Of a stretch of 64,000 nt of DNA, positions 39,108 through 57,643 are shown one piece after another. The stretch is from Deltaproteobacteria bacterium (GTDB taxonomy: Bacteria; Desulfobacterota; GWC2-55-46; JADFVP01). How positions within the stretch are numbered: position 1 is the first letter of the stretch; each line of letters opens with the position of its first letter. Where the stretch lies: contig JAJRZX010000036.1 of the NCBI GenBank assembly GCA_024275045.1, positions 19,615 through 83,614 of the forward strand. The letters run 5' to 3'. Both the position numbers and the translations under genes were made by a program. The notes beneath the pieces are model-generated. The model ran no database searches and had not been told where the DNA came from. It saw nothing but the letters and a program-made list of their open reading frames with translations.

Positions 39108-39356
39108 TCAGTCCGCGTCAACAGGCACAGGCTCGCAGAGCATGGTATCGTATATGGCAAGCCTTCCGCATTTTTTGCAGATATACTCTATCTTGTCCAG
39201 CATGGCGCCGCAGACATGGCGCGCATCATCTATGGTCTTATCGCAGAACTCGCAGGTAAAGGGCATGGCCTCGGTCCTGGGGTGGCAAAGGTGTCCACGG
39301 CCGCTGGCAAGTCCGTCGCATGTAGGACAGTGGTATGTCTTGACGTATTCGGTCAT
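39108..39356 (-). CDS. Small Cys-rich metal-binding protein (9 Cys, several CxxC pairs). Possibly a rubredoxin/zinc-ribbon-like partner of the adjacent ferritin-like protein.
   Basis: 82 aa containing CPTC, CEFC and CKKC pairs. It is well placed between same-strand genes. Confidence 0.4.
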   Translation of the reverse strand: MTEYVKTYHCPTCDGLASGRGHLCHPRTEAMPFTCEFCDKTIDDARHVCGAMLDKIEYICKKCGRLAIYDTMLCEPVPVDAD

Positions 39357-39393: not shown

Positions 39394-39885
39394 TCAGCTG
39401 TACTCTTTTCTGAGCTCAATGAGTGTCTCAAGGTGCTCTTCTTCCTGCTTTATAAGGGCCGCGAGCACGGGTCTGTCTTTTTCCACTATTACCTTCTCGT
39501 ACTCGCCGTAAAAAACAAGAGAATCCTTTTCCATGCCTATGGCAAAGTCAAGCACCTCGGCGGGGTTAGCTATCTCACCGGCAAACTTTCCGCCGTCTTC
39601 GGGGCTCTTAAAGACCTCGCTGTCTGCCATGGAGCGAAGGTACTCAGAGGCCTCGGTGATGTAAGGGTCAAAACCCTGGGATACGTACTCATCGGATACG
39701 AGTTCTTTCATATCAGCGAATATTTTTATATGGTGCCCTTCTTCTATGGCAAGTCTCTTAAAGAGGGCTTTTGTAGTCTCGTCTTTAGCGGCCTTAAAGG
39801 CGTCCGTGTAGAATTTCAGACCGTTTTCTTCTATTTTTAAGGCCATTTCTATGACCTCGCTACCAGTGAACTTTACAGAGCTCAT
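39394..39885 (-). CDS. Rubrerythrin-family ferritin-like diiron protein
   Basis: Two E-x-x-H-containing helical halves (EEGHH and EEEH). 163 aa. It has no rubredoxin domain of its own. Confidence 0.5.
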   Translation of the reverse strand: MSSVKFTGSEVIEMALKIEENGLKFYTDAFKAAKDETTKALFKRLAIEEGHHIKIFADMKELVSDEYVSQGFDPYITEASEYLRSMADSEVFKSPEDGGKFAGEIANPAEVLDFAIGMEKDSLVFYGEYEKVIVEKDRPVLAALIKQEEEHLETLIELRKEYS

Positions 39886-41681: not shown

Positions 41682-41755
41682 TGGAGCGGGCGATGGGAAT
41701 CGAACCCACGTGTGCAGCTTGGGAAGCTGCCATTCTACCATTGAATCACGCCCGC
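41682..41755 (-). tRNA. tRNA-Gly (anticodon CCC) with encoded CCA
   Basis: The reverse complement folds as a cloverleaf: acceptor GCGGGCG/CGCCCGC, D-arm ATTC..GAAT, anticodon stem GCAGC/GCTGC with loop TTCCCAA, T-arm GTGGG-TTCGATT-CCCAT. Confidence 0.85.
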
Positions 41756-45420: not shown

Positions 45421-45449
45421 TTGACAGGGTTATAAAAATATATTAGAGT
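45421..45449 (+). promoter_or_regulatory. Putative promoter (-35 TTGACA, 17 bp spacer, -10 TAGAGT) driving the S-box leader
   Basis: Sequence match about 25 nt upstream of riboswitch P1. Confidence 0.35.
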
Positions 45450-45473: not shown

Positions 45474-45632
45474 ATCTTATCCAGAGTGGCGGAGGGACTG
45501 GCCCGATGAAACCACAGCAACCGGTACCGTAAAAGGTATGACAGGTGCTAAATCCAGCAGAGACGGTTAAACGTCTCTGGAAGATAAGAAGAATTACTGG
45601 ACACTCTTCTTATTAAAGAAGGGTTTTTTTTT
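45474..45632 (+). ncRNA. SAM-I (S-box) riboswitch with intrinsic terminator
   Basis: P1 runs 5' ATCTTATCCAGAG to 3' CTCTGGAAGATAAGA. Conserved cores present are GGCGGAGGGACTGGCCCGATGAAACC, GCAACC and AGGTGCTAAATCCAGCAGAG. An 8-bp terminator stem with a T9 tract follows. The antiterminator is GATAAGAAG pairing with CTTCTTAT. Confidence 0.85.
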
Positions 45633-45733: not shown

Positions 45734-46987
45734 ATGAAGTACATGAAAGGATTAAAGTGCAGGGAGTGCGCAAAGACATATCCCCTGGACCCCATCCATG
45801 TCTGCGAGCTCTGTTTCGGCCCACTTGAGGTGGATTATGATTATGATAATATTGCCAAGGTGCTTACAAAAGACCTTATTACAGGCAGGGCGCCCAATAT
45901 GTGGAGATACAGAGAGCTTCTTCCCATAGACGCCGAGCCCTCGGTTGGCCTTAACTCGGGTTTTACGCCTCTTATACGGGCCTATAACCTCGGCGAGGCA
46001 CTTGGTGTAAAGGAGCTTTACATTAAGAACGACGCCGTGAACTTTCCCACGCTCTCCTTTAAGGACCGCGTGGTCTCCGTTGCCATTTCGCGTGCCATAG
46101 AGATGGGGTTTGACGTAATAGCCTGCGCCTCCACGGGCAACCTTGCCAACTCCGTTGCCGCAAATTCCGCTGCCTGCGGCCTTGACAGTTACGTCTTTGT
46201 GCCCTACGACCTTGAGCAGACCAAGATTACGGGCACCATTGTCTACGGCACCAACCTTGTTGGCATAAAAGGCACCTATGACGAGGTGAACAGGCTCTGC
46301 AGCGAGATAGGCGGTAAATACGGCTGGGCCTTTGTAAATATTAACATCAGGCCATTTTACGCAGAGGGTTCAAAGACCTTTGGTTACGAGATAGCCGAGC
46401 AGCTTGGGTGGAAGCTGCCGCAGCACGTTATCGTGCCAATGGCCGGGGGCTCTCTTATTACAAAGATATGGAAGGCATTTAAAGAGTTCAAGGCCCTGGG
46501 TTTTGTTGACAGCGCTCCTGCCAGGATATACGGAGCGCAGGCCACGGGCTGCGCCCCCATAGTAACTGCCGTAAAGGAAAAGAGCGAGCTTATACGTCCG
46601 GTAAAACCCGATACCATCGCAAAGTCTCTTGCTATCGGCAACCCCGCGGACGGCTTTTATTCAGCCCGTACCATTCGCGATAGCGGCGGCTGGGCAGAGG
46701 ACGTATCTGATGATGAGATAATCGAGGCAATGAAGCTCCTGGCCGAGACAGAGGGCATATTCGCCGAGACAGCAGGCGGCGTGACGGTAGGGGTGACAAA
46801 GAAACTCATTGAGCAGGGACGCATTGCCCGTGACGAGTCCATTGTTATCTCTGTTACGGGTAACGGCCTTAAGACTCAGGAGTGCCTTGCGGGCAAGATC
46901 TCAGAGCCTCCTGTAATAGAGGCGAAGCTGGCCGAGTTCGACGCACTTGTGGATGGCGGCAAGATGAAAAAAGCCGCTATCAAATAA
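45734..46987 (+). CDS. Threonine-synthase-family PLP enzyme with an N-terminal zinc ribbon. It may be a genuine threonine synthase or an O-phosphohomoserine-dependent homocysteine synthase (MetM-like).
   Basis: PLP lysine in the SFKDR context, a Trp-synthase-beta fold, and an N-terminal C-x2-C...C-x2-C. It sits directly behind the S-box. Confidence 0.75.
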   Translation: MKYMKGLKCRECAKTYPLDPIHVCELCFGPLEVDYDYDNIAKVLTKDLITGRAPNMWRYRELLPIDAEPSVGLNSGFTPLIRAYNLGEALGVKELYIKNDAVNFPTLSFKDRVVSVAISRAIEMGFDVIACASTGNLANSVAANSAACGLDSYVFVPYDLEQTKITGTIVYGTNLVGIKGTYDEVNRLCSEIGGKYGWAFVNINIRPFYAEGSKTFGYEIAEQLGWKLPQHVIVPMAGGSLITKIWKAFKEFKALGFVDSAPARIYGAQATGCAPIVTAVKEKSELIRPVKPDTIAKSLAIGNPADGFYSARTIRDSGGWAEDVSDDEIIEAMKLLAETEGIFAETAGGVTVGVTKKLIEQGRIARDESIVISVTGNGLKTQECLAGKISEPPVIEAKLAEFDALVDGGKMKKAAIK

Positions 46988-47207: not shown

Positions 47208-48194
47208 ATGACGGACCATTACATAGAGGATAAGACTAACAGGGTTGACCTTGACCTTGAGAAACTCAAAGGAAAGGTTAACTTCAATGACCTTAAATCC
47301 GGGGGGTTTATAAAGCAGAAGCAGAAAGACCTCTTTACCGTGAGGCTGCGCTGTCCGGGCGGCATGATGACCACGGATAAGCTTATTGAGATTTCAAAGC
47401 TTGCCAAAAAATACAGCAAAGAAGGCATGGTGCATTTCAGCTACCGTCAATCCTTTGAGATACTCTATGTGGATTACAGGGACTTTCACGCACTGGTTTC
47501 GGAGCTTGAGGCGCTGGGGCAGAAGGTTGCCTCTTGCGGCCCCCGTGTCAGGGTGCCTACTGCCTGCGGTGGATGCGAGTACAACCCCAACGGACTTATA
47601 GACGCGCAGGCCATGGCCCGTATGGTGGACAAAGAATTCTTCGGCACAAATACGCCCCATAAGTTCAAGACCTCTTTCTCGGGCTGTCCCATTGATTGCT
47701 CAAGAACCGTTGAGATGGACCTTGGTTTTCAGGGCGTTGTAGACCCCGAGTGGGTGCAGGACCTCTGCACGGGCTGCACCATCTGCTCTGAAGCATGTAA
47801 GGAAGGCGCCATTGAGGCCCATCCCGATACAGGTGAACCAATATTCGATGTTAATAAATGCCTCTACTGCGCTGACTGCATTCGCGCCTGCCCAACAGAG
47901 GCTTGGAAGCCCAGGCGTCACGGATTTATCGTACGCATAGGCGGTAAACACGGCCGTCACCCCCTCGAGGGCGTTGAGGTATGCCGCTTTCTCCCTGAAG
48001 ACAAGGTAAGTCATGCCATTGATATGACCGTAAAGTGGTACAAGGCAAACGGCAAGAGTTTCGAGAGGATAGGAAGCACGCTTCAGAGGCTTGGCATGGA
48101 TAGTTATGTTAAGCACATGGCCCCGGTATTTGGAGACATGGCCGTGGTTCCAGAGCATCCGCCTACTGACAGGCCCCTTATAGACCAGGGCTGA
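47208..48194 (+). CDS. Small dissimilatory-type sulfite-reductase-like protein (Dsr-LP/alSir-like) with an inserted 2x[4Fe-4S] ferredoxin domain
   Basis: Putative siroheme/Fe-S Cys cluster ...TACGGCEY...SGCPIDC, followed by two ferredoxin motifs CTGCTICSEAC and CLYCADCIRACP. 328 aa. Confidence 0.55.
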   Translation: MTDHYIEDKTNRVDLDLEKLKGKVNFNDLKSGGFIKQKQKDLFTVRLRCPGGMMTTDKLIEISKLAKKYSKEGMVHFSYRQSFEILYVDYRDFHALVSELEALGQKVASCGPRVRVPTACGGCEYNPNGLIDAQAMARMVDKEFFGTNTPHKFKTSFSGCPIDCSRTVEMDLGFQGVVDPEWVQDLCTGCTICSEACKEGAIEAHPDTGEPIFDVNKCLYCADCIRACPTEAWKPRRHGFIVRIGGKHGRHPLEGVEVCRFLPEDKVSHAIDMTVKWYKANGKSFERIGSTLQRLGMDSYVKHMAPVFGDMAVVPEHPPTDRPLIDQG

Positions 48195-48359: not shown

Positions 48360-48605
48360 GTGGATATGGACGATATAACGGCAAAAGAGAGCATTGATCT
48401 ACGGGGCGTAATGTGCCCCACCAACTTTGTAAAGACAAAGCTTAAGCTTGAGGCCATGGACCCCGGGGATATTCTTGAGGTGGTTCTTGATGCAGGCGAA
48501 CCCATTGCCAACGTGCCAAAGAGCGTCAAGGAAGAGGGACATAAGATTGTCAAGGTAATTAAAGACGACGGCTCATTCAGGATTATGATAGAAGTCTCTG
48601 AGTAG
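48360..48605 (+). CDS. TusA/SirA-like sulfurtransferase (two-layered alpha/beta sandwich)
   Basis: 81 aa with the conserved Cys in LRGVMCPTNFVKTK (TusA CPxP-like position) and a DILEVV-type pattern. Confidence 0.55.
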   Translation: MDMDDITAKESIDLRGVMCPTNFVKTKLKLEAMDPGDILEVVLDAGEPIANVPKSVKEEGHKIVKVIKDDGSFRIMIEVSE

Positions 48606-48634: not shown

Positions 48635-48919
48635 ATGCCAGTAAAGGTAAGGATACCAACACCGCTCAGAAAGATAACAAAGGACAACGATGAGGTTCTG
48701 GCCGAGGGGACTACTGTTACCGAGGTTATAGAGGACCTTGAGAAGAACTACCCCGGCCTCAAAGAGAGGATCTGCGAGGACGACGGCAACCTCCGCCGTT
48801 TTGTAAATCTTTATCTCAATGACGAGGACATACGTTTTAAGGATAACCTCAATACCAGCGTCTCTGATAATGACGAGTTATCCATTATCCCGGCCATAGC
48901 CGGCGGAGGTGCGGGTTGA
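48635..48919 (+). CDS. ThiS/MoaD-family sulfur-carrier protein with the C-terminal extension ...AGGG-AG
   Basis: 94 aa with a beta-grasp pattern. A Gly-Gly is followed by two extra residues (AG) before the stop. The stop overlaps the TTG start of the next gene (GTTGA). Confidence 0.6.
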   Translation: MPVKVRIPTPLRKITKDNDEVLAEGTTVTEVIEDLEKNYPGLKERICEDDGNLRRFVNLYLNDEDIRFKDNLNTSVSDNDELSIIPAIAGGGAG

Positions 48920-49152
48920 AAAAAAAGGTCTATCTTACTTATCCCTCCGATAAGGTTAAGGAGCCTCTTCTTTGCCTGTGTTCGCGCAAATTCAAGGTCT
49001 TAACCAATATCAGGCAGGCTTCTGTAACGGATAAGATTGGAATAGTTGCCCTTGAGCTTGAGGGCGAGGCCTCTGAGATAGAGAAGGCCATGGACTTTTT
49101 TACGGAAAACGGTGTAATGGTCGAGCCTATTGAGATGGATATTATAGTTTAG
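48916..49152 (+). CDS. NIL-domain (MetN C-terminal-like, ACT-fold) small protein
   Basis: 78 aa. RKFKVLTNIRQASVTDKIGIVALELEGE...GVMVEPI parallels E. coli MetN C2 ([30 protein letters not shown]...VKVEVLGYV). It is translationally coupled to the carrier gene. Confidence 0.5.
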   Translation: MKKKVYLTYPSDKVKEPLLCLCSRKFKVLTNIRQASVTDKIGIVALELEGEASEIEKAMDFFTENGVMVEPIEMDIIV

Positions 49153-49402: not shown

Positions 49403-50362
49403 ATGAGAAAAAACAATACACTGGAGAGTTTTGAGGCAGAGAAAGGACCCTCGGCAGGCAAGGCACGGTTCTCGGCCCTTGAGCTTGTTGGTAATACGCC
49501 TCTTGTGAGGATAAACAGGATTACAAAAGACCTGCCGAGCGGTGTTGAGGTATACGCCAAGCTTGAGTCCGCCAACCACGGCGGCTCTGTAAAAGACAGA
49601 CCCGCGCTGCGCATGATTGAAGACGCGGAGAAGAGCGGGCGGCTTACAAAGGAAAAGATAATACTGGACTCCACATCAGGCAACACGGGCATTGCCTATG
49701 CCTGGATAGGCGCCGTAAAGCAACACCGCGTGGAGCTTGTGGTGCCGGAGAACGTAAGCTCAGAGCGAAAAAAGATACTTGACGCATTTGGGGCGAGGGT
49801 GATTTTCTCAAGCCCTTTTGAGGGCTCTGACGGGGCCATACGCCTTGCGTGGAAGCTATACGTGGCTAACCCCGAAAAGTACTGCAAGCTTGACCAGTAC
49901 AACAACCCCTCAAACCCCCTGGCCCATTACTACGGCACAGGGCTTGAGATTATAGAGCAGACAGGCGGGGCCATTACCCACTTTGTCACTACCATCGGCA
50001 CAGGGGGAACCATAATGGGCACCATGCGCAGGCTAAAGGAATTTAACAGCAATATTCAGGTCATCGCTGTAGAGCCTGATAACCCCATGCACGGCCTTGA
50101 GGGTCTTAAACACATGGCCTCATCAATAGTGCCGGGCATATATCACGAGGACTCTCTTGACGGCAAGGTCCCTGCCTCAACAGAGGAGTCTTATGAGATG
50201 ACCAAGAGGCTCGCGAGAGAAGAGGGGCTTCTTGTGGGCCAGTCTTCAGGGGCGGCCATGCTTGGAGCCCTTAAGGTGGCAAGCGGCCTTACCGAGGGAG
50301 TGGTGGTAACCATCTTTCCCGATGGCGGAGACAAATACCTCTCCACACGTCTCTGGGAGTAG
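49403..50362 (+). CDS. Cysteine synthase (CysK/CysM family; possibly thiocarboxylate-dependent, CysM-like)
   Basis: PLP lysine in the SVKDR context, and GNTGIA, GTGGT motifs. 319 aa. Confidence 0.85.
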   Translation: MRKNNTLESFEAEKGPSAGKARFSALELVGNTPLVRINRITKDLPSGVEVYAKLESANHGGSVKDRPALRMIEDAEKSGRLTKEKIILDSTSGNTGIAYAWIGAVKQHRVELVVPENVSSERKKILDAFGARVIFSSPFEGSDGAIRLAWKLYVANPEKYCKLDQYNNPSNPLAHYYGTGLEIIEQTGGAITHFVTTIGTGGTIMGTMRRLKEFNSNIQVIAVEPDNPMHGLEGLKHMASSIVPGIYHEDSLDGKVPASTEESYEMTKRLAREEGLLVGQSSGAAMLGALKVASGLTEGVVVTIFPDGGDKYLSTRLWE

Positions 50363-50695: not shown

Positions 50696-51163
50696 ATGGG
50701 TCTGCTCTCAAAGTTCAGGAAAAAAGAAAAATTGTATGTTCCAAAGGAATTTTATGACGATATGATTGAGCACGCCAAGCTGGAGTATCCGCATGAGTGC
50801 TGCGGCGTTCTTATAGGCAACTCCATGATGGGGGACAGGAAGATATTTCACACCGAGAGGTGCACTAACCTCAATAAAGAGCGCGCCCATGACAGGTATC
50901 TCATGGACCCCAGAGAGATAAACCTCGCTGATAAGGGTGCACGCGCGCAGTCCCTTGAGATTATGGGGTTTTACCACTCGCACCCGGATCATCCCGACAG
51001 GCCCTCGGAGTACGACCGTGAGGTGGCCCACCCCGGGTACTCGTACATAATACTCTCGGTAAAGGACGGCAAAGAGGTTACGGCAAAGTCCTGGACATTT
51101 GCCGAGCTTGATGAGCCCTTTGTGGAAGAGGCCATTGAGGTAACAGTATCAAAGTGGAAGTAA
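50696..51163 (+). CDS. JAMM/MPN+ zinc metalloprotease (Mec+/HcyD/QbsD-like)
   Basis: The complete JAMM motif E...HSH-x7-S-x2-D (HECCG ... HSHPDHPDRPSEYD). Confidence 0.75.
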   Translation: MGLLSKFRKKEKLYVPKEFYDDMIEHAKLEYPHECCGVLIGNSMMGDRKIFHTERCTNLNKERAHDRYLMDPREINLADKGARAQSLEIMGFYHSHPDHPDRPSEYDREVAHPGYSYIILSVKDGKEVTAKSWTFAELDEPFVEEAIEVTVSKWK

Positions 51164-51286: not shown

Positions 51287-52096
51287 ATGGACTTTACAGA
51301 TGAGCAGATAGAGCGTTACTCAAGACACATTATACTGCCCGAGGTAGGGGGAAAAGGTCAGACAAAACTCCTTGAGTCCAAGGTCTTTGTCCTTGGAGCA
51401 GGAGGGCTTGGCTCACCGGCGCTTCTGTACCTTGCAGCCGCGGGTGTTGGCACAATAGGCATCGCAGACGGCGATGTGGTGGATGTAAGTAACCTGCAGC
51501 GTCAGATAATCCATGACAACAATACAGTGGGCATGGCAAAGGTGGAGAGCGCTCGTAAATCCATCGAGGCCCTTAACCCCGATGTGGTGGTTAATACCTT
51601 TAACAGCCGTCTTGGTATAGAGAATATCCGCGAGGTGCTCCGTGACTACGATGTTGTGCTTGACGGCTCTGATAACTTTCCAACGCGTTACCTTATGAAC
51701 GACGCCTCCTTTTTTGAGGGCAAGACCCTTATCTCGGGCAGCATGTTCAGGTTTGACGGACAGGTCTCTGTCTTTAAGCCGGCTGATGGGTACCCCTGCT
51801 ACAGGTGCCTCTATCCCGAGCCGCCGCCAAAGGGCATGGTACCGTCCTGTCAGGAGGCCGGTGTGCTTGGCGCTCTTGCCGGTGTTATCGGTGTGCTGCA
51901 GGCTGTTGAGGCAATTAAAGAGATACTCTCCATAGGCAAGGTCCTTGCAGGAGAGCTCTTGATATTTGACGCCCTTGGTATGAGCTTTCGTAAAGTCAAG
52001 GTGCGGCGCGACCCTGATTGCGCGCTCTGCGGCGAAAATGCCACTATAAAGGAACTCTCGCTCTATGAGCAGGCACCCTGTGAGCTGCGTACCTGA
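51287..52096 (+). CDS. ThiF/MoeB-family E1-like adenylyltransferase (no rhodanese domain)
   Basis: Nucleotide loop GAGGLGSP, an RQ motif, and Zn-binding C-x2-C...C-x2-C (PCYRC, DCALCG). Confidence 0.85.
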   Translation: MDFTDEQIERYSRHIILPEVGGKGQTKLLESKVFVLGAGGLGSPALLYLAAAGVGTIGIADGDVVDVSNLQRQIIHDNNTVGMAKVESARKSIEALNPDVVVNTFNSRLGIENIREVLRDYDVVLDGSDNFPTRYLMNDASFFEGKTLISGSMFRFDGQVSVFKPADGYPCYRCLYPEPPPKGMVPSCQEAGVLGALAGVIGVLQAVEAIKEILSIGKVLAGELLIFDALGMSFRKVKVRRDPDCALCGENATIKELSLYEQAPCELRT

Positions 52097-52235: not shown

Positions 52236-53462
52236 GTGATAAGAAAAAATTACTTTAAGAACCCCGGTGCGTTGAAGATAGACCTTATGCTGAGGGGGGC
52301 GGCCATTGAAGACCCTGTTGCCAAGGCGCGGGCCTGCGGGGCCACCGGCATAGACATACTCCTGCCTAAAAAAATACTTGTAAACATACCCTGCGAAGAC
52401 TGGTTTACCGTGCGCTCGCCTTACGTGATTAAAAAATCCGCCGGTAAAAAGGGGTATATCCTTACCAACGGCAGTGACAGCGTACCTGTAAGCATACTTG
52501 ATAGACCGGAGTTTTACAGCCGCAAGACCGCTACCGGGGTGCCTTTTGGTGATATTGCCGTAACGCACGGCAGTTACACCGTTATAACGCCTGATAAGAG
52601 GTGCGGTTTTTTTAAATCCAGCGCCCAGTGCAGGTACTGCGCCGGGAACTTCAGCACCGATGCCGCTGAGAATGGCGGACGCGTCTATACCGTAGAAGAG
52701 GTCCTTGAGACAGTTAAGGCCGTGCTCAAGGAAAAGGCGTCAGGCATAATATACCTCTCCATAGGTTTTAGCGATGGCGATGACGGGGGCATTAAGTTTC
52801 TCGAACCCTATGTAAAGGCGATTAAGTCCCATTTTAACTGCCTTGTCGCGGTAGAGGCCCTGCCCCCTGCCAGTAACGAGTGGATAGACAGGGCATACGC
52901 CTTTGGCGTTGACTCAATACTTTATAATCTGGATATCTTTGATAAGGAGCTTTTTTCTGTAATATGCCCGGGCAGGGCCGGCCTTATAGGAAGACAGCGT
53001 ACTCTTGATGCCCTTAAATACGCCGCTGGTATCTTTGCAAACGGCACAGTGGCCTCGCACCTCATAGTTGGCCTTGAACCCCCGGGCTCTACGATTATGG
53101 GCATTGATTTTCTTACGGACTCAGGTGTTGTGCCTATACTGCCCATATTCCGCCCCTCAAAGGACAGGCCCCTTGATGTGACGGACCTTGATGCAGAGGT
53201 GATAATACCGGTGTACCGGCACCTGTACAAGACGCTTAAGAAAAAAGGCATCAACTTCAACTGGGTCCGTGATATAAGCATGGTTACTACCCCTGTTGAG
53301 GGCAGATATCTTTTAAATGACGAGAAGAGCTCATCGCCGTTTCTTGATAATTTTTACGAGTCCAGGCTTGGCATGAAAACAGCCTGGGGGCTAAGCGCAA
53401 TCAGAAGACGGCTAAGGGTTAAAAAAATTAAAAAAGAGGACCCCCCCGAGGGTTCTCCGTAG
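52236..53462 (+). CDS. Hypothetical protein with a C-x9-C-x2-C cysteine cluster followed by a TIM-barrel-like region. Possibly a non-canonical radical-SAM/Fe-S enzyme.
   Basis: 408 aa containing CGFFKSSAQCRYCAGNF. No canonical C-x3-C-x2-C is present. Glycine-rich (GGG-like) segments follow. Confidence 0.35.
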   Translation: MIRKNYFKNPGALKIDLMLRGAAIEDPVAKARACGATGIDILLPKKILVNIPCEDWFTVRSPYVIKKSAGKKGYILTNGSDSVPVSILDRPEFYSRKTATGVPFGDIAVTHGSYTVITPDKRCGFFKSSAQCRYCAGNFSTDAAENGGRVYTVEEVLETVKAVLKEKASGIIYLSIGFSDGDDGGIKFLEPYVKAIKSHFNCLVAVEALPPASNEWIDRAYAFGVDSILYNLDIFDKELFSVICPGRAGLIGRQRTLDALKYAAGIFANGTVASHLIVGLEPPGSTIMGIDFLTDSGVVPILPIFRPSKDRPLDVTDLDAEVIIPVYRHLYKTLKKKGINFNWVRDISMVTTPVEGRYLLNDEKSSSPFLDNFYESRLGMKTAWGLSAIRRRLRVKKIKKEDPPEGSP

Positions 53463-53480: not shown

Positions 53481-54905
53481 GTGAGAGTAGAGATTGACAG
53501 AAGACCGATATGGGTAATTCTCGCCGGCAAGGCGCTGAGACCTGTTTTCTTTCTCTTGCTTGCACTGGGGTTTATCCTCTTTCTTCAGCTTCCCGTGCCT
53601 GAGGGCCTTGGGACAGGGGGGATGAGGGCAATAGCTGTTTTTTTGCTATGCCTCGTGCTCTGGGTCTCAAACGCAGTGCCCGTGGCTATTACCGGGCTCT
53701 TTGCCATAGTGCTTGTCCCGCTCCTCGGGGTGCTGCCGCGCGGGGCCACGTACTCGCTATTTGGCAATGAGGCAGTGTTTTTTATACTGGGGGCCTTTAT
53801 ACTCTCAGGCGCGGTCATGCAGTCAGGGCTCTCGAACAGAGTGGCCCTGCGCCTCATGGAGAAGCACGGCGGGTCTCCGAAACGCCTTATAATAAGCATT
53901 TTTTTGCTTGCAGCGGCCCTCTCGTTTGTTATGAGCGAGCATGCCGTTGCGGCCATGCTCTTTCCCATTGTGCTTGAGATATCAAAGAGTCTGAAACTCA
54001 GGCCCGGCGAGTCCAATTACGGAAAGCTCCTCTTCTTCGCCCTTGCCTGGGGTTCTGTCATAGGCGGGGTTGGGACTTTTCTTGGCGGAGCGCGTGTGCC
54101 GCTGGCAATGGGAATACTCAAAGAAACAACGGGCTCTACCATAGGTTTTTTGGATTATACCGTGGCCGTGGCGCCCCTTGTGGTGGTCCTCTTAATCGTG
54201 GGGTATATCGTGCTGACGAGGTTTTTTCCCGTTGATATCGATGGTGTGGAGAACGCCCACAAGGTAATCGTGAGGCGCGCGCGGGCCCTTGGAAAGGTAC
54301 GCCCAAGAGAGTACGCCGTTGGTTTAATACTTGGCATTACCATATTGCTCTGGATAACAATCGGCAAGACCGTAGGGCTTGCCGCCATTGCCATGTTATC
54401 TGTTATGGCCCTATTTGTCCTTAAACTCGTAAAATGGCGCGAGATTGAGGAGTACGTGAACTGGGGCATAATACTCATGTACGGCGGCGCCATTATACTC
54501 GGCACTGCCCTTGACAGGAGCGGCGCCGCAAAGTGGATGGTAGACGCCATTATGACGCAGTGGGCTCAGACGCCCATAACGGTTATAGCCCTCTTCTCGC
54601 TCCTGGCAATACTGCTAACAGAGTCCATGAGCAACGCCGCGGTTATCGCTGTTCTGCTGCCCGTGAGCATTGGCATGGCGGGCCGTACCAATATGAGCCC
54701 CGAGGTCCTTACCTATGTGGTGGCCATTCCCGCGGGGCTGGCCTTTATGCTGCCCATGAGTACCCCGGCTAACGCCATTGCCGTATCAAGCGATTACATA
54801 TCGGTTCGTGATATGGCAAAGGGCGGGGTGATAATGTTTTTAACCTCCTGGGTTACATTTAACCTCATGGCGCACTTTTATTGGCCCCTCATAGGGCTGA
54901 GATAG
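53481..54905 (+). CDS. DASS/SLC13-family (ArsB/NhaD-fold) anion transporter, plausibly a sulfate permease
   Basis: 474 aa with about 12-14 TM helices and an internal-repeat architecture typical of CitT/SLC13. It sits in the sulfate-assimilation context. Confidence 0.7.
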   Translation: MRVEIDRRPIWVILAGKALRPVFFLLLALGFILFLQLPVPEGLGTGGMRAIAVFLLCLVLWVSNAVPVAITGLFAIVLVPLLGVLPRGATYSLFGNEAVFFILGAFILSGAVMQSGLSNRVALRLMEKHGGSPKRLIISIFLLAAALSFVMSEHAVAAMLFPIVLEISKSLKLRPGESNYGKLLFFALAWGSVIGGVGTFLGGARVPLAMGILKETTGSTIGFLDYTVAVAPLVVVLLIVGYIVLTRFFPVDIDGVENAHKVIVRRARALGKVRPREYAVGLILGITILLWITIGKTVGLAAIAMLSVMALFVLKLVKWREIEEYVNWGIILMYGGAIILGTALDRSGAAKWMVDAIMTQWAQTPITVIALFSLLAILLTESMSNAAVIAVLLPVSIGMAGRTNMSPEVLTYVVAIPAGLAFMLPMSTPANAIAVSSDYISVRDMAKGGVIMFLTSWVTFNLMAHFYWPLIGLR

Positions 54906-54988: not shown

Positions 54989-55459
54989 ATGATGACCAAT
55001 ACTAAGATACTGCTTGTTTTATCCACTCATGTGTACTCTGATAAGGCCATTGAGTACGCCGTCAGGCGGGCCAGGGAGGAAGAGAGGCAGCTTGTAGCTT
55101 TTTTTCTTCTTGAGTCTGAGCTTGCCGAGGAGGCGTCTGAGAGGTTCTCGGACATTGGTTTTACAGGCGACAGGCCCTCGGCCACATTATCTGAGTCTCT
55201 TATGCGCGAGTACCGGCAGAGGGGGTATGAGGCCCTTGGCAGGGCGCAGATAAAGGCCATGGAGGATGGTGTGGACTTTGAGCCTCTGTTAAAAGAGGGG
55301 CCTTATGTATCTACCATACTTGAGGTAATAAGGGCACACGGTATAGGTCTTACCGTTATACAGAGGCGAAAGGAGAGGTCCTTTCTGCATTACTTTAAAA
55401 AAGGTTTATCCGTAAAGGTTAAAGAGGCGGCTTCATGCGAGGTCGTTATCATCGAGTAA
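54989..55459 (+). CDS. UspA-like alpha/beta domain protein (ATP-motif-less)
   Basis: 156 aa with weak USP-like periodicity. No glycine-rich ATP loop. Confidence 0.3.
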   Translation: MMTNTKILLVLSTHVYSDKAIEYAVRRAREEERQLVAFFLLESELAEEASERFSDIGFTGDRPSATLSESLMREYRQRGYEALGRAQIKAMEDGVDFEPLLKEGPYVSTILEVIRAHGIGLTVIQRRKERSFLHYFKKGLSVKVKEAASCEVVIIE

Positions 55460-55486: not shown

Positions 55487-56191
55487 ATGGCAGGAAAGCA
55501 GTGGAGTGAAGAAGAACTTAAGGCAGTATCCGATGAGCTTGAAGATAAGGGACCCCAGGCCGCCATTCAATGGGCTGTGGATAATTTCGATACACAGGAC
55601 TTATCTCTTGCCTGTAGTTTCGGCGCCGAGGACGTTGCTCTTGTGGATATGCTTGTGAAGATAAAACCTGATGCAAGGATTTTTTATCTTGATACAAATA
55701 AGCTCTTCAAGGAGACCATTGATGTAATGGAGCGCCTTAAAGAGAGGTACAATATTAACCCTGAGAAGTATACCTCAAAGATGAGCCTTGCCGAGCAGGC
55801 CGCCGAGTTCGGCGATGAGCTCTGGGCAAAGGATCCGAAGAAGTGCTGCGACATAAGAAAGATAACACCTCTTAAAGAAGCTCTCTCAGGGCTTAGTGCC
55901 TGGATTACCGGTATAAGAAGGGATCAGGCACCGGCAAGGGCCAACGCCCCTGTAGTTGGCTGGGACGCCATGTTCAACCTTGTGAAGATAAACCCGCTGG
56001 TAAAGTGGACGAGCGAGGATGTGTGGGATTATATCCGCGCCAATAACGTGCCTTACAATGAGCTTCATGACAAGAATTACCCCTCAATAGGCTGTGAGCC
56101 ATGCACCAATGAGGTGAAGCCAGGCGAGGACCCAAGGGCCGGAAGATGGGCCGGATTTAAGAAGACAGAGTGCGGACTTCACGACAAGTAA
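55487..56191 (+). CDS. cysH: Assimilatory adenylyl-sulfate (APS) reductase, Fe-S type (CysH family)
   Basis: The PAPS_reduct fold plus a Cys-Cys pair (KKCCDIRK) and C-x2-C (GCEPCT) for the [4Fe-4S] cluster. The C-terminal ECGLH carries the catalytic Cys. Confidence 0.85.
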   Translation: MAGKQWSEEELKAVSDELEDKGPQAAIQWAVDNFDTQDLSLACSFGAEDVALVDMLVKIKPDARIFYLDTNKLFKETIDVMERLKERYNINPEKYTSKMSLAEQAAEFGDELWAKDPKKCCDIRKITPLKEALSGLSAWITGIRRDQAPARANAPVVGWDAMFNLVKINPLVKWTSEDVWDYIRANNVPYNELHDKNYPSIGCEPCTNEVKPGEDPRAGRWAGFKKTECGLHDK

Positions 56192-56284: not shown

Positions 56285-57448
56285 GTGGATACATTAATCG
56301 CCCCTCATGGCGGGGTGCTTATAAACAGGGTCGTAGAGGGTAAGGCCCGTCTTGATCTGGAAAAAGCCTCGATAAATATGAACACCCTTGTTCTTAATGA
56401 GAGGGAGATCTCAGACCTTGAGATGATAGCAACAGGCGGTTTCAGCCCTCTTGCCGGTTTTATGTGTCACGATGATTATCACTCTGTGATGGATACCATG
56501 ACGCTCACTAATGGTCTGCCCTGGACCATACCTGTTACTCTCTCTGCCACAGAGGCAGAGGCGGCTGAGCTGAGAGAGGGTACGGACGTGGCCCTTAATA
56601 ACGAGAACGGCGAGCTTCTGGCCATCCTTCATCTTGAGCAGATATTCAAGCACGACCCTGAGAAAGAGGCCCTTCGCGTTTACGGAACCCCTGATGAGGC
56701 ACACCCAGGTGTGAAAAACGTCTATGCAATGGGCTCCCAACTCCTTGGCGGCAAGATATCTCTGCTTGAGCGTACCGAGTATGACCAGTTTAACGAGTAC
56801 CGCAGAGACCCCATTGAGACAAGGCAGCTCTTTAAGAAGAACGGCTGGCGCCGCGTTGTGGGTTTTCAGACCAGAAACCCCATACACAGGGCCCATGAGT
56901 ACATTCAAAAATGCGCGCTTGAGACAGTTGACGGTCTGATGATACATCCTCTTGTAGGCGAGACAAAGTCCGATGATATACCCGCGGATGTGCGTATGAA
57001 CTGCTACGAGACGCTTATGGCCAAGTACTATCCAGCCGACAGGGTGGTGCTCTCCGTATATCCCGCGGCCATGCGCTACGCAGGGCCCCGCGAGGCTGTC
57101 TTTCACGCACTTATACGCAAGAACTACGGATGCACCCACTTTATCGTTGGCAGAGACCATGCTGGCGTAGGCGGCTACTACGGAACCTTTGACGCTCATC
57201 TTATATTTAACAAGTTTGAGCCCGAGGCCATAGGCATAGCCCCCATGTTCTTTGATTATACCTTTCACTGCAAGAGTTGCGGCGGCATGGCCTCGTACAA
57301 GACATGCCCCCATGATTCGTCTGAGCACATTACCTTATCAGGCACAAAGGTGCGGGAGATGCTGAGGGCCGGCACGTGTCCGCCGCCCGAGTTCTCAAGG
57401 CCCGAGGTTGCAGAGGTCCTTATTAAGGCCATGAAATCCGGCGCATAA
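56285..57448 (+). CDS. sat: Sulfate adenylyltransferase (ATP sulfurylase)
   Basis: QTRN...H motif ([13 protein letters not shown]), a PUA-like N-domain and GRDHAG. A GTG start is assumed. Confidence 0.9.
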
Positions 57449-57608
57449 GGGAGTTCATGCCGTGGTACCCGGCAGCTCCCCCGTGGGGCTGCCAGTGGTA
57501 TTGCACAAGCTGAGAGAATACCTGCAGGCAAGCGGTGCCGAGAGGCAAATAAAGTGATTGCCTGCTCCGTTACCGGCAGTTCAGCGAGCACAATTCAATA
57601 TATGTGAG

Positions 57609-57643
57609 AGGAGGGGGGTGATTAGCCCCCTTCCTTTTTTTTT
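57609..57643 (+). terminator. Rho-independent terminator downstream of sat
   Basis: A G/C stem (GGAGGGGGG...GCCCCCTTCC) followed by T9. Confidence 0.6.

Follow-up and report, generated by a model that had tools for sequence, protein, structure and literature searches.

Small proteins related to dissimilatory sulfite reductase (Dsr-like proteins, Dsr-LP) were defined as a class in 2012, with bacterial members from Geobacter and Syntrophus included (Susanti & Mukhopadhyay, 2012; PMC3448663). A group IIId member from the methanogen M. maripaludis (MMP0078/MMP_RS00450) was reported in 2024 to convert sulfite to usable sulfur in vivo (bioRxiv 10.1101/2024.03.05.583561). A gene neighbourhood composed of ThiS, JAB, E1, SirA (= TusA), sulfite reductase, Sat, and 3'-phosphoadenylyl sulfate (PAPS) reductase was described by Iyer, Burroughs & Aravind (2006; PMC1779556, Table 1 row 4e). 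These authors predicted the ThiS-like protein to be where the sulfur ends up, remarked that the E1 enzyme lacks a rhodanese domain, and predicted a relay by SirA. [quoted passage not shown] Here we analyze a locus which combines these elements. It is found in a 64-kb stretch from a Deltaproteobacteria bacterium (assembly GCA_024275045.1, contig JAJRZX010000036.1, positions 19,615 to 83,614; "the window" refers to this entire stretch, and coordinates are counted from its first nucleotide). The gene at the center of the analysis is:

47208-48194, + strand: sulfite reductase open reading frame (ORF), 328 aa, group IIId Dsr-like by sequence, second gene of the operon

We regard it as likely, though by no means certain, that this 328-aa protein is the assimilatory reductase of an operon which is repressed by S-adenosylmethionine (SAM) and leads from sulfate to methionine and cysteine via a protein thiocarboxylate, with TusA as dedicated partner of the reductase. 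Domains, catalytic residues, fold, operon make-up, riboswitch, and synteny were all observed in the present analysis. The enzyme class, the neighbourhood type, and the thiocarboxylate routes to cysteine and homocysteine are already known, and the locus is a further case of them. What goes beyond the first-pass annotation of the window is the near-constant pairing of the reductase with TusA and the C-x2-C spacing in a clade of close relatives. In the literature searched, we found no earlier account of the depth and tightness of this pairing, of its tentative link to Cys110, or of the C-x2-C clade. Our literature search also returned no publication treating TusA, thiocarboxylate, and sulfite reductase together, and none for the GSU1351 name (see below).

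The 328-aa ORF is a genuine gene for a small Dsr-like protein with an embedded two-cluster ferredoxin. It starts with ATG, with AAGGAGG 8 nt upstream. As many as 1413 database proteins match it at E <= 1e-10, so that it is a real gene and not a chance pattern. A Pfam scan assigns NIR_SIR_ferr to residues 35-102 (E 1.9e-15) and NIR_SIR to residues 111-302 (E 6e-23), with two Fer4 motifs inserted at ~residues 180-235. The first-pass annotation had proposed a group III Dsr-like sulfite reductase with exactly this embedded ferredoxin; Pfam domains and residues bear this out and allow a refinement to group IIId. It had also named a siroheme-type cysteine cluster, which is present (C120-x2-C123 ... 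C160-x3-C164, that is C-x2-C-x36-C-x3-C), and two C-x2-C-x2-C-x3-C motifs, each followed by proline. Both motifs were found (C187-x2-C190-x2-C193-x3-C197 and C218-x2-C221-x2-C224-x3-C228-P), but proline follows only the second one, the residue after the first being lysine.

Among proteins of solved structure, the sulfite-reductase half of Fsr gives the best sequence match (PDB 7npa/7np8; HMMER, E 8.5e-40; ~31% identity). In the HMMER alignment, the sulfite-binding residues Arg355, Arg423, Lys460, and Lys462 of Fsr correspond to R46, R115, K152, and K154, while the cluster ligands Cys428, Cys468, and Cys472 correspond to C120, C160, and C164. Arg388, an assimilatory (aSir-type) hallmark, is aligned with R80, and all eight cysteines of the inserted ferredoxin match those of Fsr. 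The roles of the individual Fsr residues are according to the Fsr structure preprint. The window protein thus shares substrate residues, ferredoxin cysteines, and the arginine at 388 with Fsr's C-terminal half. Fsr itself was rejected as an assignment: the match spans Fsr residues 315-611 only, and no FrhB (F420H2-oxidase) domain was found in the 328-aa protein. R46, R115, K152, K154, R80, C120, C123, C160, and C164 are invariant across 121 family members.

The structure prediction that had been suggested together with the first-pass annotation gives a sulfite-reductase fold. The AlphaFold model, computed with 25 homologues as input, has a mean pLDDT (predicted local distance difference test) of 82.4. 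Its best fold match is Fsr (template modelling score, TM, 0.70; E 1e-23), followed by DsrB/DsrA (~1e-18), and then by E. coli SiRHP (1e-11) and plant nitrite/sulfite reductases. We predict that the protein probably binds siroheme and reduces sulfite. It had been considered the only sulfite reductase candidate in the window, and this proved correct: when all frames of the 64-kb window were searched with a hidden Markov model (HMM) built from 100+ diverse relatives, no further ORF of the sulfite-reductase type was detected (next best E 4.2). Siroheme-synthesis genes adjoin distant relatives of the reductase in three related loci (L021, L032, L035).

Dsr-LP were classified according to Susanti & Mukhopadhyay (2012; PMC3448663), and curated NCBIfam/TIGRFAM cut-offs were applied for other families. 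Related loci carry L-numbers. P-numbers denote 50%-identity representatives, and contigs were looked up for those which are 34-42% identical. From its sequence, the 328-aa protein is assigned to the bacterial group IIId Dsr-LP. It has the four cysteines for the siroheme-coupled [4Fe-4S] cluster (C120, C123, C160, C164) and the inserted ferredoxin with a peripheral and an additional [4Fe-4S] cluster (residues 187-197 and 218-228). Because all four sulfite-binding Arg/Lys are present (R46, R115, K152, K154), it is placed in subgroup IIId rather than in plain group III. With the methanogen proteins of group IIId it has in common that it is free-standing with a length of ~300 aa, and that it carries siroheme-[4Fe-4S], the four Arg/Lys, and the inserted two-cluster ferredoxin. 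In contrast to these, it is bacterial (identity to archaeal-type representatives is ~30-35%), shows C-x2-C in place of C-x5-C, contains an extra cysteine (Cys110), and is encoded with TusA in a sulfate-assimilation/thiocarboxylate operon, whereas the gene for the archaeal-type P0152 is located beside an FrhB-like gene and has no TusA. A representative which is 69% identical to the window protein (P0044) carries the SEED name "Putative sulfite reductase, GSU1351 type".

The first-pass annotation had likened the protein to alSir. The two share that they are small Dsr-type siroheme proteins with a proposed assimilatory role (alSir is D. vulgaris DVU1597). However, alSir belongs to the ferredoxin-less group I (PMC3448663), which is defined by the lack of the insertion, and the insertion of the window protein brings eight extra cluster cysteines, so this likeness had to be given up. 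The statement that the class is known mostly from methanogens and sulfate reducers also needs correction, as the 2012 study already pointed to bacterial homologues of group III, in Geobacter and Syntrophus (PMC3448663). DsrA and DsrB (TIGR02064/TIGR02066) were rejected at 68 and 69 bits, compared to cut-offs of 393 and 342. The protein has SGCPIDC and lacks the DsrB-type C-xn-CC-x3-C pair, and R80 is found where DsrA has Thr. CysI/Sir was rejected because the protein corresponds to one half only (328 aa vs. duplicated ~550 aa), with 27.5 bits against 756 for TIGR02041 and 34.6 bits against a cut-off of 457 for NF010029.

AsrC resembles the window protein in length and domain order, and it is the top NCBIfam model for it (TIGR02912). 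JGI labels for relatives are dissimilatory sulfite reductase or AsrC, and Fsr also reduces nitrite. This could point to a non-assimilatory role, either dissimilatory or detoxifying: an AsrC-like enzyme, a sulfite-stress protein of the methanogen type, or a nitrite reductase. We consider such a role very improbable. The AsrC score is only 110.1 bits, compared to a cut-off of 324.1, and true AsrC is just 24% identical. The window and 20 related loci contain neither asrA nor asrB (L037 holds a true asrABC operon for comparison), and dsrC and dsrMK are absent from the window. Finally, the gene belongs to a SAM-riboswitch operon together with Sat, CysH, and enzymes which depend on pyridoxal phosphate (PLP) and form amino acids.

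This operon extends over ~12 kb and comprises 13 co-directional genes headed by the SAM riboswitch. In addition to the reductase gene, it consists of the following features:

45421-45449, + strand: match to a sigma-70-like promoter, TTGACA-17-TAGAGT (10/12 in a consensus scan; a pattern match only)

45474-45590, + strand: SAM (S-box) riboswitch aptamer (RF00162, full-length, 85.6 bits vs. gathering threshold 44.4)

45603-45624, + strand: hairpin and T-run after the aptamer, likely the riboswitch terminator (9 pairs, then TTTTTTTT; putative role)

45734-46987, + strand: threonine-synthase-like PLP enzyme with an N-terminal Cys4 ribbon (PALP, E 2.1e-68; NF006050, 312.7 bits)

48360-48605, + strand: TusA-family sulfur carrier with a single cysteine, C19, in C-P-T-N-F-V-K-T-K-L (PF01206, E 2.4e-21)

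48635-48919, + strand: ThiS/MoaD-type carrier ending ...AIAGG-GAG (PF02597, E 1.6e-18)

48916-49152, + strand: NIL-domain protein, its ORF overlapping the ThiS stop by 4 nt (PF09383, E 3.3e-13)

49403-50362, + strand: CysM/CysK-like PLP enzyme (PALP; TIGR01138, 367.6 bits, which is under the cut-off of 394)

50696-51163, + strand: JAB/JAMM metallopeptidase with an HSHP...S..D motif (PF14464, E 2.2e-25)

51287-52096, + strand: E1-like ThiF/MoeB adenylyltransferase, 269 aa (PF00899 at residues 11-246; NF004281, 318.9 bits)

52236-53462, + strand: variant radical-SAM protein, 408 aa (NF045502, 169.7 bits; conserved position)

53481-54905, + strand: SLC13/CitMHS-type anion permease, probable sulfate importer (PF00939, E 2.3e-60)

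54989-55459, + strand: universal stress protein (USP) family gene (PF00582, E 4.4e-08)

55487-56191, + strand: adenylyl sulfate (APS) reductase, CysH Fe-S type, with CC and C-x2-C pairs (TIGR02055, 249 bits vs. cut-off 235.3)

56285-57448, + strand: ATP sulfurylase Sat (PF01747, E 1.9e-98; PF14306, PUA_2)

57606-57638, + strand: strong intrinsic-terminator-like hairpin at the operon end (14-pair stem, 7 GC, T-run)

Several statements of the first-pass annotation are confirmed by these assignments, namely the S-box operon with TusA as neighbour (RF00162, PF01206), and the presence of sat and of an APS reductase of the Fe-S type (PF01747/PF14306; TIGR02055). The riboswitch is located 143 nt before the first gene on the same strand, and it occurs at the equivalent place in L001, L004, L007, L009, L010, L013, and L019. 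No other RNA elements were detected by Rfam in the operon region, its large intergenic gaps included, at E <= 0.1. The full 13-gene order is kept in L001-L007 and L009. The nearest loci, at 87-91% identity, are from metagenome-assembled genomes (MAGs) of uncultured Thermodesulfobacteriota. The sequence makes it likely that the operon is one SAM-controlled transcript. Across the related loci, the riboswitch tracks operons containing MetM (the threonine-synthase-like gene, see below) and not the reductase-TusA pair. In L020 (8382-10954), the gene for an Rrf2-family regulator precedes CysH-TusA-DsrLP and there is no SAM riboswitch.

Judged by its domains, the operon carries a full set for protein thiocarboxylate formation and use: carrier, rhodanese-less E1, JAB peptidase, CysM-like enzyme, and threonine-synthase-like enzyme. 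The carrier has the ThiS/MoaD fold and a C-terminal Gly-Gly, which is followed by 2-5 extra residues in all loci. The other two proteins typical of thiocarboxylate systems, E1 (PF00899) and JAB/JAMM (PF14464), are both encoded. No rhodanese domain was detected by the Pfam scan in the 269-aa E1. In three loci, ThiS is fused in frame to NIL (L010 11333-11857, L013 8068-8679, L019 8976-9575; …AIAGG-APIKKK…NIL), so that release of the carrier requires a cut behind the GG, consistent with the JAB peptidase. The NIL domain is the methionine-binding regulatory domain of MetN, and it also occurs in the homocysteine pathway of methanogens. The threonine-synthase-like gene is linked to the genes for reductase, TusA, and ThiS in 14 related loci, and in the Omnitrophota loci it is positioned between TusA and ThiS. 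MetM is a threonine-synthase homologue which is often misannotated as threonine synthase (GapMind preprint). By analogy, the threonine-synthase-like enzyme is a probable MetM-type, thiocarboxylate-dependent homocysteine synthase. The CysM/CysK-like enzyme is a probable thiocarboxylate-using cysteine synthase, and the JAB peptidase would trim the carrier C-terminus and release the amino acid.

The neighbourhood described in 2006 on purely comparative grounds agrees with the operon in carrier, JAB, rhodanese-less E1, sulfite reductase, Sat, PAPS/APS reductase, and in SirA/TusA, which is always there. It differs in that an O-acetylhomoserine sulfhydrylase is listed there, while the operon in the window additionally has the threonine-synthase-like, CysM-like, NIL, variant radical-SAM, and USP genes and the SAM riboswitch. 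Characterized thiocarboxylate pathways (HcyS/HcyD/HcyF/MetY, with Sir, from Wolinella; CysO/Mec/MoeZ/CysM from M. tuberculosis; MetO/Mec/MoeZ/MetM from Streptomyces) likewise employ a JAB peptidase and an E1 together with PLP enzymes that use the thiocarboxylate, and their carrier too has extra residues beyond the GG. In contrast to these, the MetM-like and the CysM-like enzyme of the window apparently share a single carrier. Unlike MoeZ, the E1 is devoid of a rhodanese domain, and the enzyme providing the sulfur would be a mini Dsr-LP paired with TusA.

The variant radical-SAM protein is related to the MSMEG_0568 family and has an apparent C-x9-C-x2-C motif (CGFFKSSAQCRYC). Its gene separates the E1 gene from that for the sulfate permease in L001-L007, L009, L010, L013, and L019. 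In the same loci, the USP gene is kept between the sulfate permease and cysH.

Based on these assignments, the pathway would proceed as follows. Sulfate would be taken up by the SLC13-type permease, converted to APS by Sat, and reduced to sulfite by the Fe-S type CysH. The Dsr-like protein, by analogy with Fsr a probable homodimer, would bind sulfite at a siroheme coupled to [4Fe-4S], and its two inserted [4Fe-4S] clusters would accept electrons from a soluble donor of the ferredoxin type, so that the sulfur is taken down to the sulfide level. The ThiS-like carrier, after trimming by the JAB peptidase and adenylation by E1, would then receive the sulfur at its C-terminal Gly-Gly in the form of a thiocarboxylate. 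The MetM-like and CysM-like PLP enzymes would use this thiocarboxylate to form homocysteine and cysteine adducts, from which JAB would free the amino acids. TusA would be a dedicated partner of the reductase, most probably as a sulfur relay which replaces the missing rhodanese domain. The relay to the adenylated carrier is proposed because E1 lacks this domain.

The proposal that TusA works together with the reductase is strongly argued by gene order. In all 19 related loci having sequence on the respective side, the TusA gene adjoins the reductase gene. Either gene may come first, and Deltaproteobacteria, Omnitrophota, and Nitrospinota are all represented. Among distant representatives, TusA is found immediately downstream in eight of the nine which carry Cys110 (P0126, P0128, P0130, P0133, P0137, P0143, P0146, and P0150), and in most of these eight the two genes overlap by 4-17 nt; an overlap of 4 nt is frequent. 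The pairing thus spans sequence identities from 91% down to 34%. ThiS and ThiF are lacking beside the pair in L011, L017, L018, L020, L028, and L030, and in L011 the pair occurs alone. The pair is found in arrangements such as ThiF-DsrLP-TusA-ThiS-PLP enzyme, DsrLP-TusA-CysH-CysD-CysNC, DsrLP-TusA-CysE, TauE-DsrLP-TusA, and DsrLP-TusA-thioredoxin-ThiS-ThiF-JAB followed by siroheme genes. Because the company around reductase and TusA varies in this way, we consider the pair, and not the thiocarboxylate set, to be the conserved core.

The linked TusA proteins have a single cysteine in C-P-x-[NT]-[FW]-V-K-T-K-L together with GEP-x2-NVP[KR]S-x-K-x-EGH, unlike the classical CPxP. Those from L001-L032 are a recognizable sub-type, and L022 has a second, classical copy with C-P-x-P. 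Among curated models, TusA from the window scores best against the YedF N-domain, with 54 bits compared to a cut-off of 79; matches to the TsuB/YeeD models are weak. In L021 (392-5785), the order is DsrLP-TusA-JAB-radical SAM-radical SAM(SPASM)-NirD/L-like-siroheme synthase, which ties the pair to genes for siroheme (or alternative haem) biosynthesis. In the Firmicutes-like loci L032 (1806-7077) and L033, the Dsr-LP carries an N-terminal fragment of a PLP enzyme of Cys/Met metabolism (PF01053), and it is followed by TusA, thioredoxin, ThiS, ThiF, JAB, BioY, a precorrin-2 dehydrogenase-like gene, and HemC.

The reductase has two peculiarities of sequence. The first is the spacing of the siroheme-cluster cysteines. 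The position of Fsr Cys434 is occupied by the invariant N126, and the family uses C123 instead, which results in C-x2-C in place of C-x5-C. This spacing is limited to the close clade and a few neighbours, the other 50%-identity representatives having C-x5-C or C-x4-C. A relative from L021 (42% identical) has a C-x2-C-type motif, CQGCTINPYG. The second peculiarity is Cys110, which is invariant in the family. It is located within S-C-G-P-R-V-R, five residues before R115, at a position where Fsr has Glu. Cys110 was rejected as a novelty of the clade: x-C-G-P-R-V-R is widespread in bacterial representatives and is seen even in the alignment with true AsrC. It is present in all nine TusA-linked groups examined. 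The two Cys110-less representatives examined are not linked to TusA (P0152, beside an FrhB-like gene, and P0157), and Fsr also lacks this cysteine. P0163 has Cys110, yet a siroheme methyltransferase gene and not TusA is found downstream. Since Cys110 thus occurs in P0163 and apparently also in true AsrC, the link to TusA is limited to about a dozen cases, in which the co-occurrence is suggestive.

A close analogy exists to DsrAB and DsrC, which have the same fold, the ferredoxin inserted at the same place, and an adjoining gene for a small cysteine-bearing carrier. The window protein differs by being only 19-23% identical to DsrAB, by being encoded by one gene (probably as a homodimer) compared to alpha and beta subunits, by lacking the CC of DsrB, and by having Arg instead of the DsrA Thr. 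Its partner TusA has one cysteine while DsrC has two, and the context is assimilatory. The first-pass annotation had suggested a direct hand-off of reduced sulfur to TusA, and this is plausible, being supported by synteny and partly opposed by the assimilatory hallmarks. As an assimilatory counterpart of DsrAB-DsrC, the enzyme would perform a four-electron reduction, and Cys19 of TusA would remove the siroheme-bound zero-valent sulfur as a persulfide, with Cys110 as a possible relay or resolving thiol. The TusA persulfide would react with ThiS-AMP to an acyl disulfide, from which two electrons would free ThiS-COSH, so that no free sulfide is formed.

Adjacency and translational coupling from 91% to 34% identity, in either gene order and also in loci without ThiS/ThiF, speak for such a hand-off. 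If the chemistry is like that of MoeZ/ThiI, an E1 without rhodanese needs a persulfide donor, and a persulfide drawn from cysteine would make little sense in a pathway which makes cysteine de novo. The thioredoxin gene between TusA and ThiS in L032/L033 would suit the reductive release of the thiocarboxylate from an acyl disulfide. The presence of Cys110 in all nine TusA-linked groups, with its lack in P0152, P0157, and Fsr, and the Dsr-like fold are also in favour. However, R80 at the position of Fsr Arg388 and the missing DsrB-type CC are both tied to full six-electron reduction by the Fsr authors, and the siroheme of Fsr is buried, with a solvent channel as the only access. Cys110 in P0163 and true AsrC detracts from its proposed role, and CysE or CysDN beside the pair (L028, L030) points to consumers of free sulfide. 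On balance, we consider the hand-off a possibility that is rather doubtful. The broader idea, that Dsr-LP and TusA constitute a widespread assimilatory analogue of DsrAB-DsrC in which siroheme sulfur passes to a TusA persulfide (possibly via Cys110) and on to the thiocarboxylate, and to which the C-x2-C clade is adapted, is slightly more doubtful still.

TusA might also act on the substrate side. It would then deliver a cysteine-bound sulfonate or thiosulfonate derived from CysH, or split thiosulfate to persulfide and sulfite, the pair being a module for handling thiosulfate and sulfite. The minimal loci L017, L018, L020, and L028 retain CysH as a third conserved gene beside the pair, TauE-type anion permeases are encoded beside the pair in L017 and L024, Dsr-LP mutants of M. 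maripaludis are sensitive to thiosulfate as well, and TusA from the window scores best on YedF and weakly on TsuB/YeeD. Against this, the YeeE/TsuA transporter is absent from the window, and the operon is geared to sulfate (permease, Sat, CysH). APS reductases such as CysH are not known to pass an S-sulfonate on to another thiol. We thus consider a substrate-side function improbable.

Several points weigh against the reading we favour, an assimilatory reductase in a SAM-repressed operon with TusA as dedicated partner. The canonical group IIId spacing C-x5-C-xn-C-x3-C is not found, although it is the spacing which differs and not the number of ligands; residues 124-128, just after C-x2-C, are the sole low-confidence loop within the fold of the AlphaFold model. 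No gene for an electron donor or a reductase partner was found in the operon. The sole-candidate result applies to the window only, and another sulfite reductase may be encoded elsewhere in the genome. Intergenic gaps of up to 220-333 nt and internal promoter-like sites leave the single-transcript reading unproven. Every activity assigned here, the electron donor, the oligomeric state, and the role of TusA are predictions, as is the activity of the bacterial family in general. Finally, in the Wolinella HcyS system free bisulfide is reportedly enough to form the thiocarboxylate in vitro. If free bisulfide suffices, TusA may be dispensable for thiocarboxylate formation.

The bisulfide result also counts against a direct hand-off and in favour of a route via free sulfide. 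The reductase would then be an ordinary six-electron enzyme, and the HS- released would react directly with ThiS-AMP or, in loci with CysK/CysE as partners, with O-acetylserine. TusA would do another job: it might be loaded from elsewhere, have a regulatory function, or protect the sulfide/sulfite pool. This has a real though minor chance of being correct, hardly better than that of the hand-off. It agrees with the assimilatory-type hallmarks, with sulfide production by Fsr, the closest solved relative, unaided, and with the M. maripaludis IIId protein, which sustains growth on sulfite. However, it leaves unexplained why reductase and TusA are paired near-universally, often with overlapping genes, even in loci without E1 or carrier.

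Outside of the operon, a tRNA gene is located ~4 kb upstream (41685-41755, - strand, 66.4 bits), with an equivalent placement in L001 and L004. An 82-aa Cys-rich ORF with several C-x2-C pairs (39108-39356, - strand) is found beside a 163-aa helical ORF (39394-39885, - strand), and both lie upstream of an aldehyde-dehydrogenase-like gene.

Annotation pipelines label family members as "4Fe-4S binding protein" or "dissimilatory sulfite reductase". As a consequence of such mislabelling, genome surveys score sulfate assimilation as incomplete. In a survey of Nitrospinota (PMC10839748), the assimilatory sulfite reductase was reported to be missing from most non-Nitrospinia MAGs, and a dependence on external sulfide was inferred. 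One MAG scored there as devoid of Sir (NC_groundwater_1756_..._59_45) yet has DsrLP-TusA-CysH-TauE (L017 9938-12863). Recognizing the family closes this annotation gap in Thermodesulfobacteriota, Desulfuromonadales, Omnitrophota, Nitrospinota, and others. The C-x2-C clade is a natural variant of siroheme-cluster ligation which is useful to enzymology, and the translationally coupled reductase-TusA pair is a two-protein test system for the supply of sulfur to a carrier when E1 lacks a rhodanese domain. If the pair does prove to be an assimilatory analogue of DsrAB-DsrC, anaerobes would use sulfate to make cysteine and methionine with no free sulfide being released at any stage.

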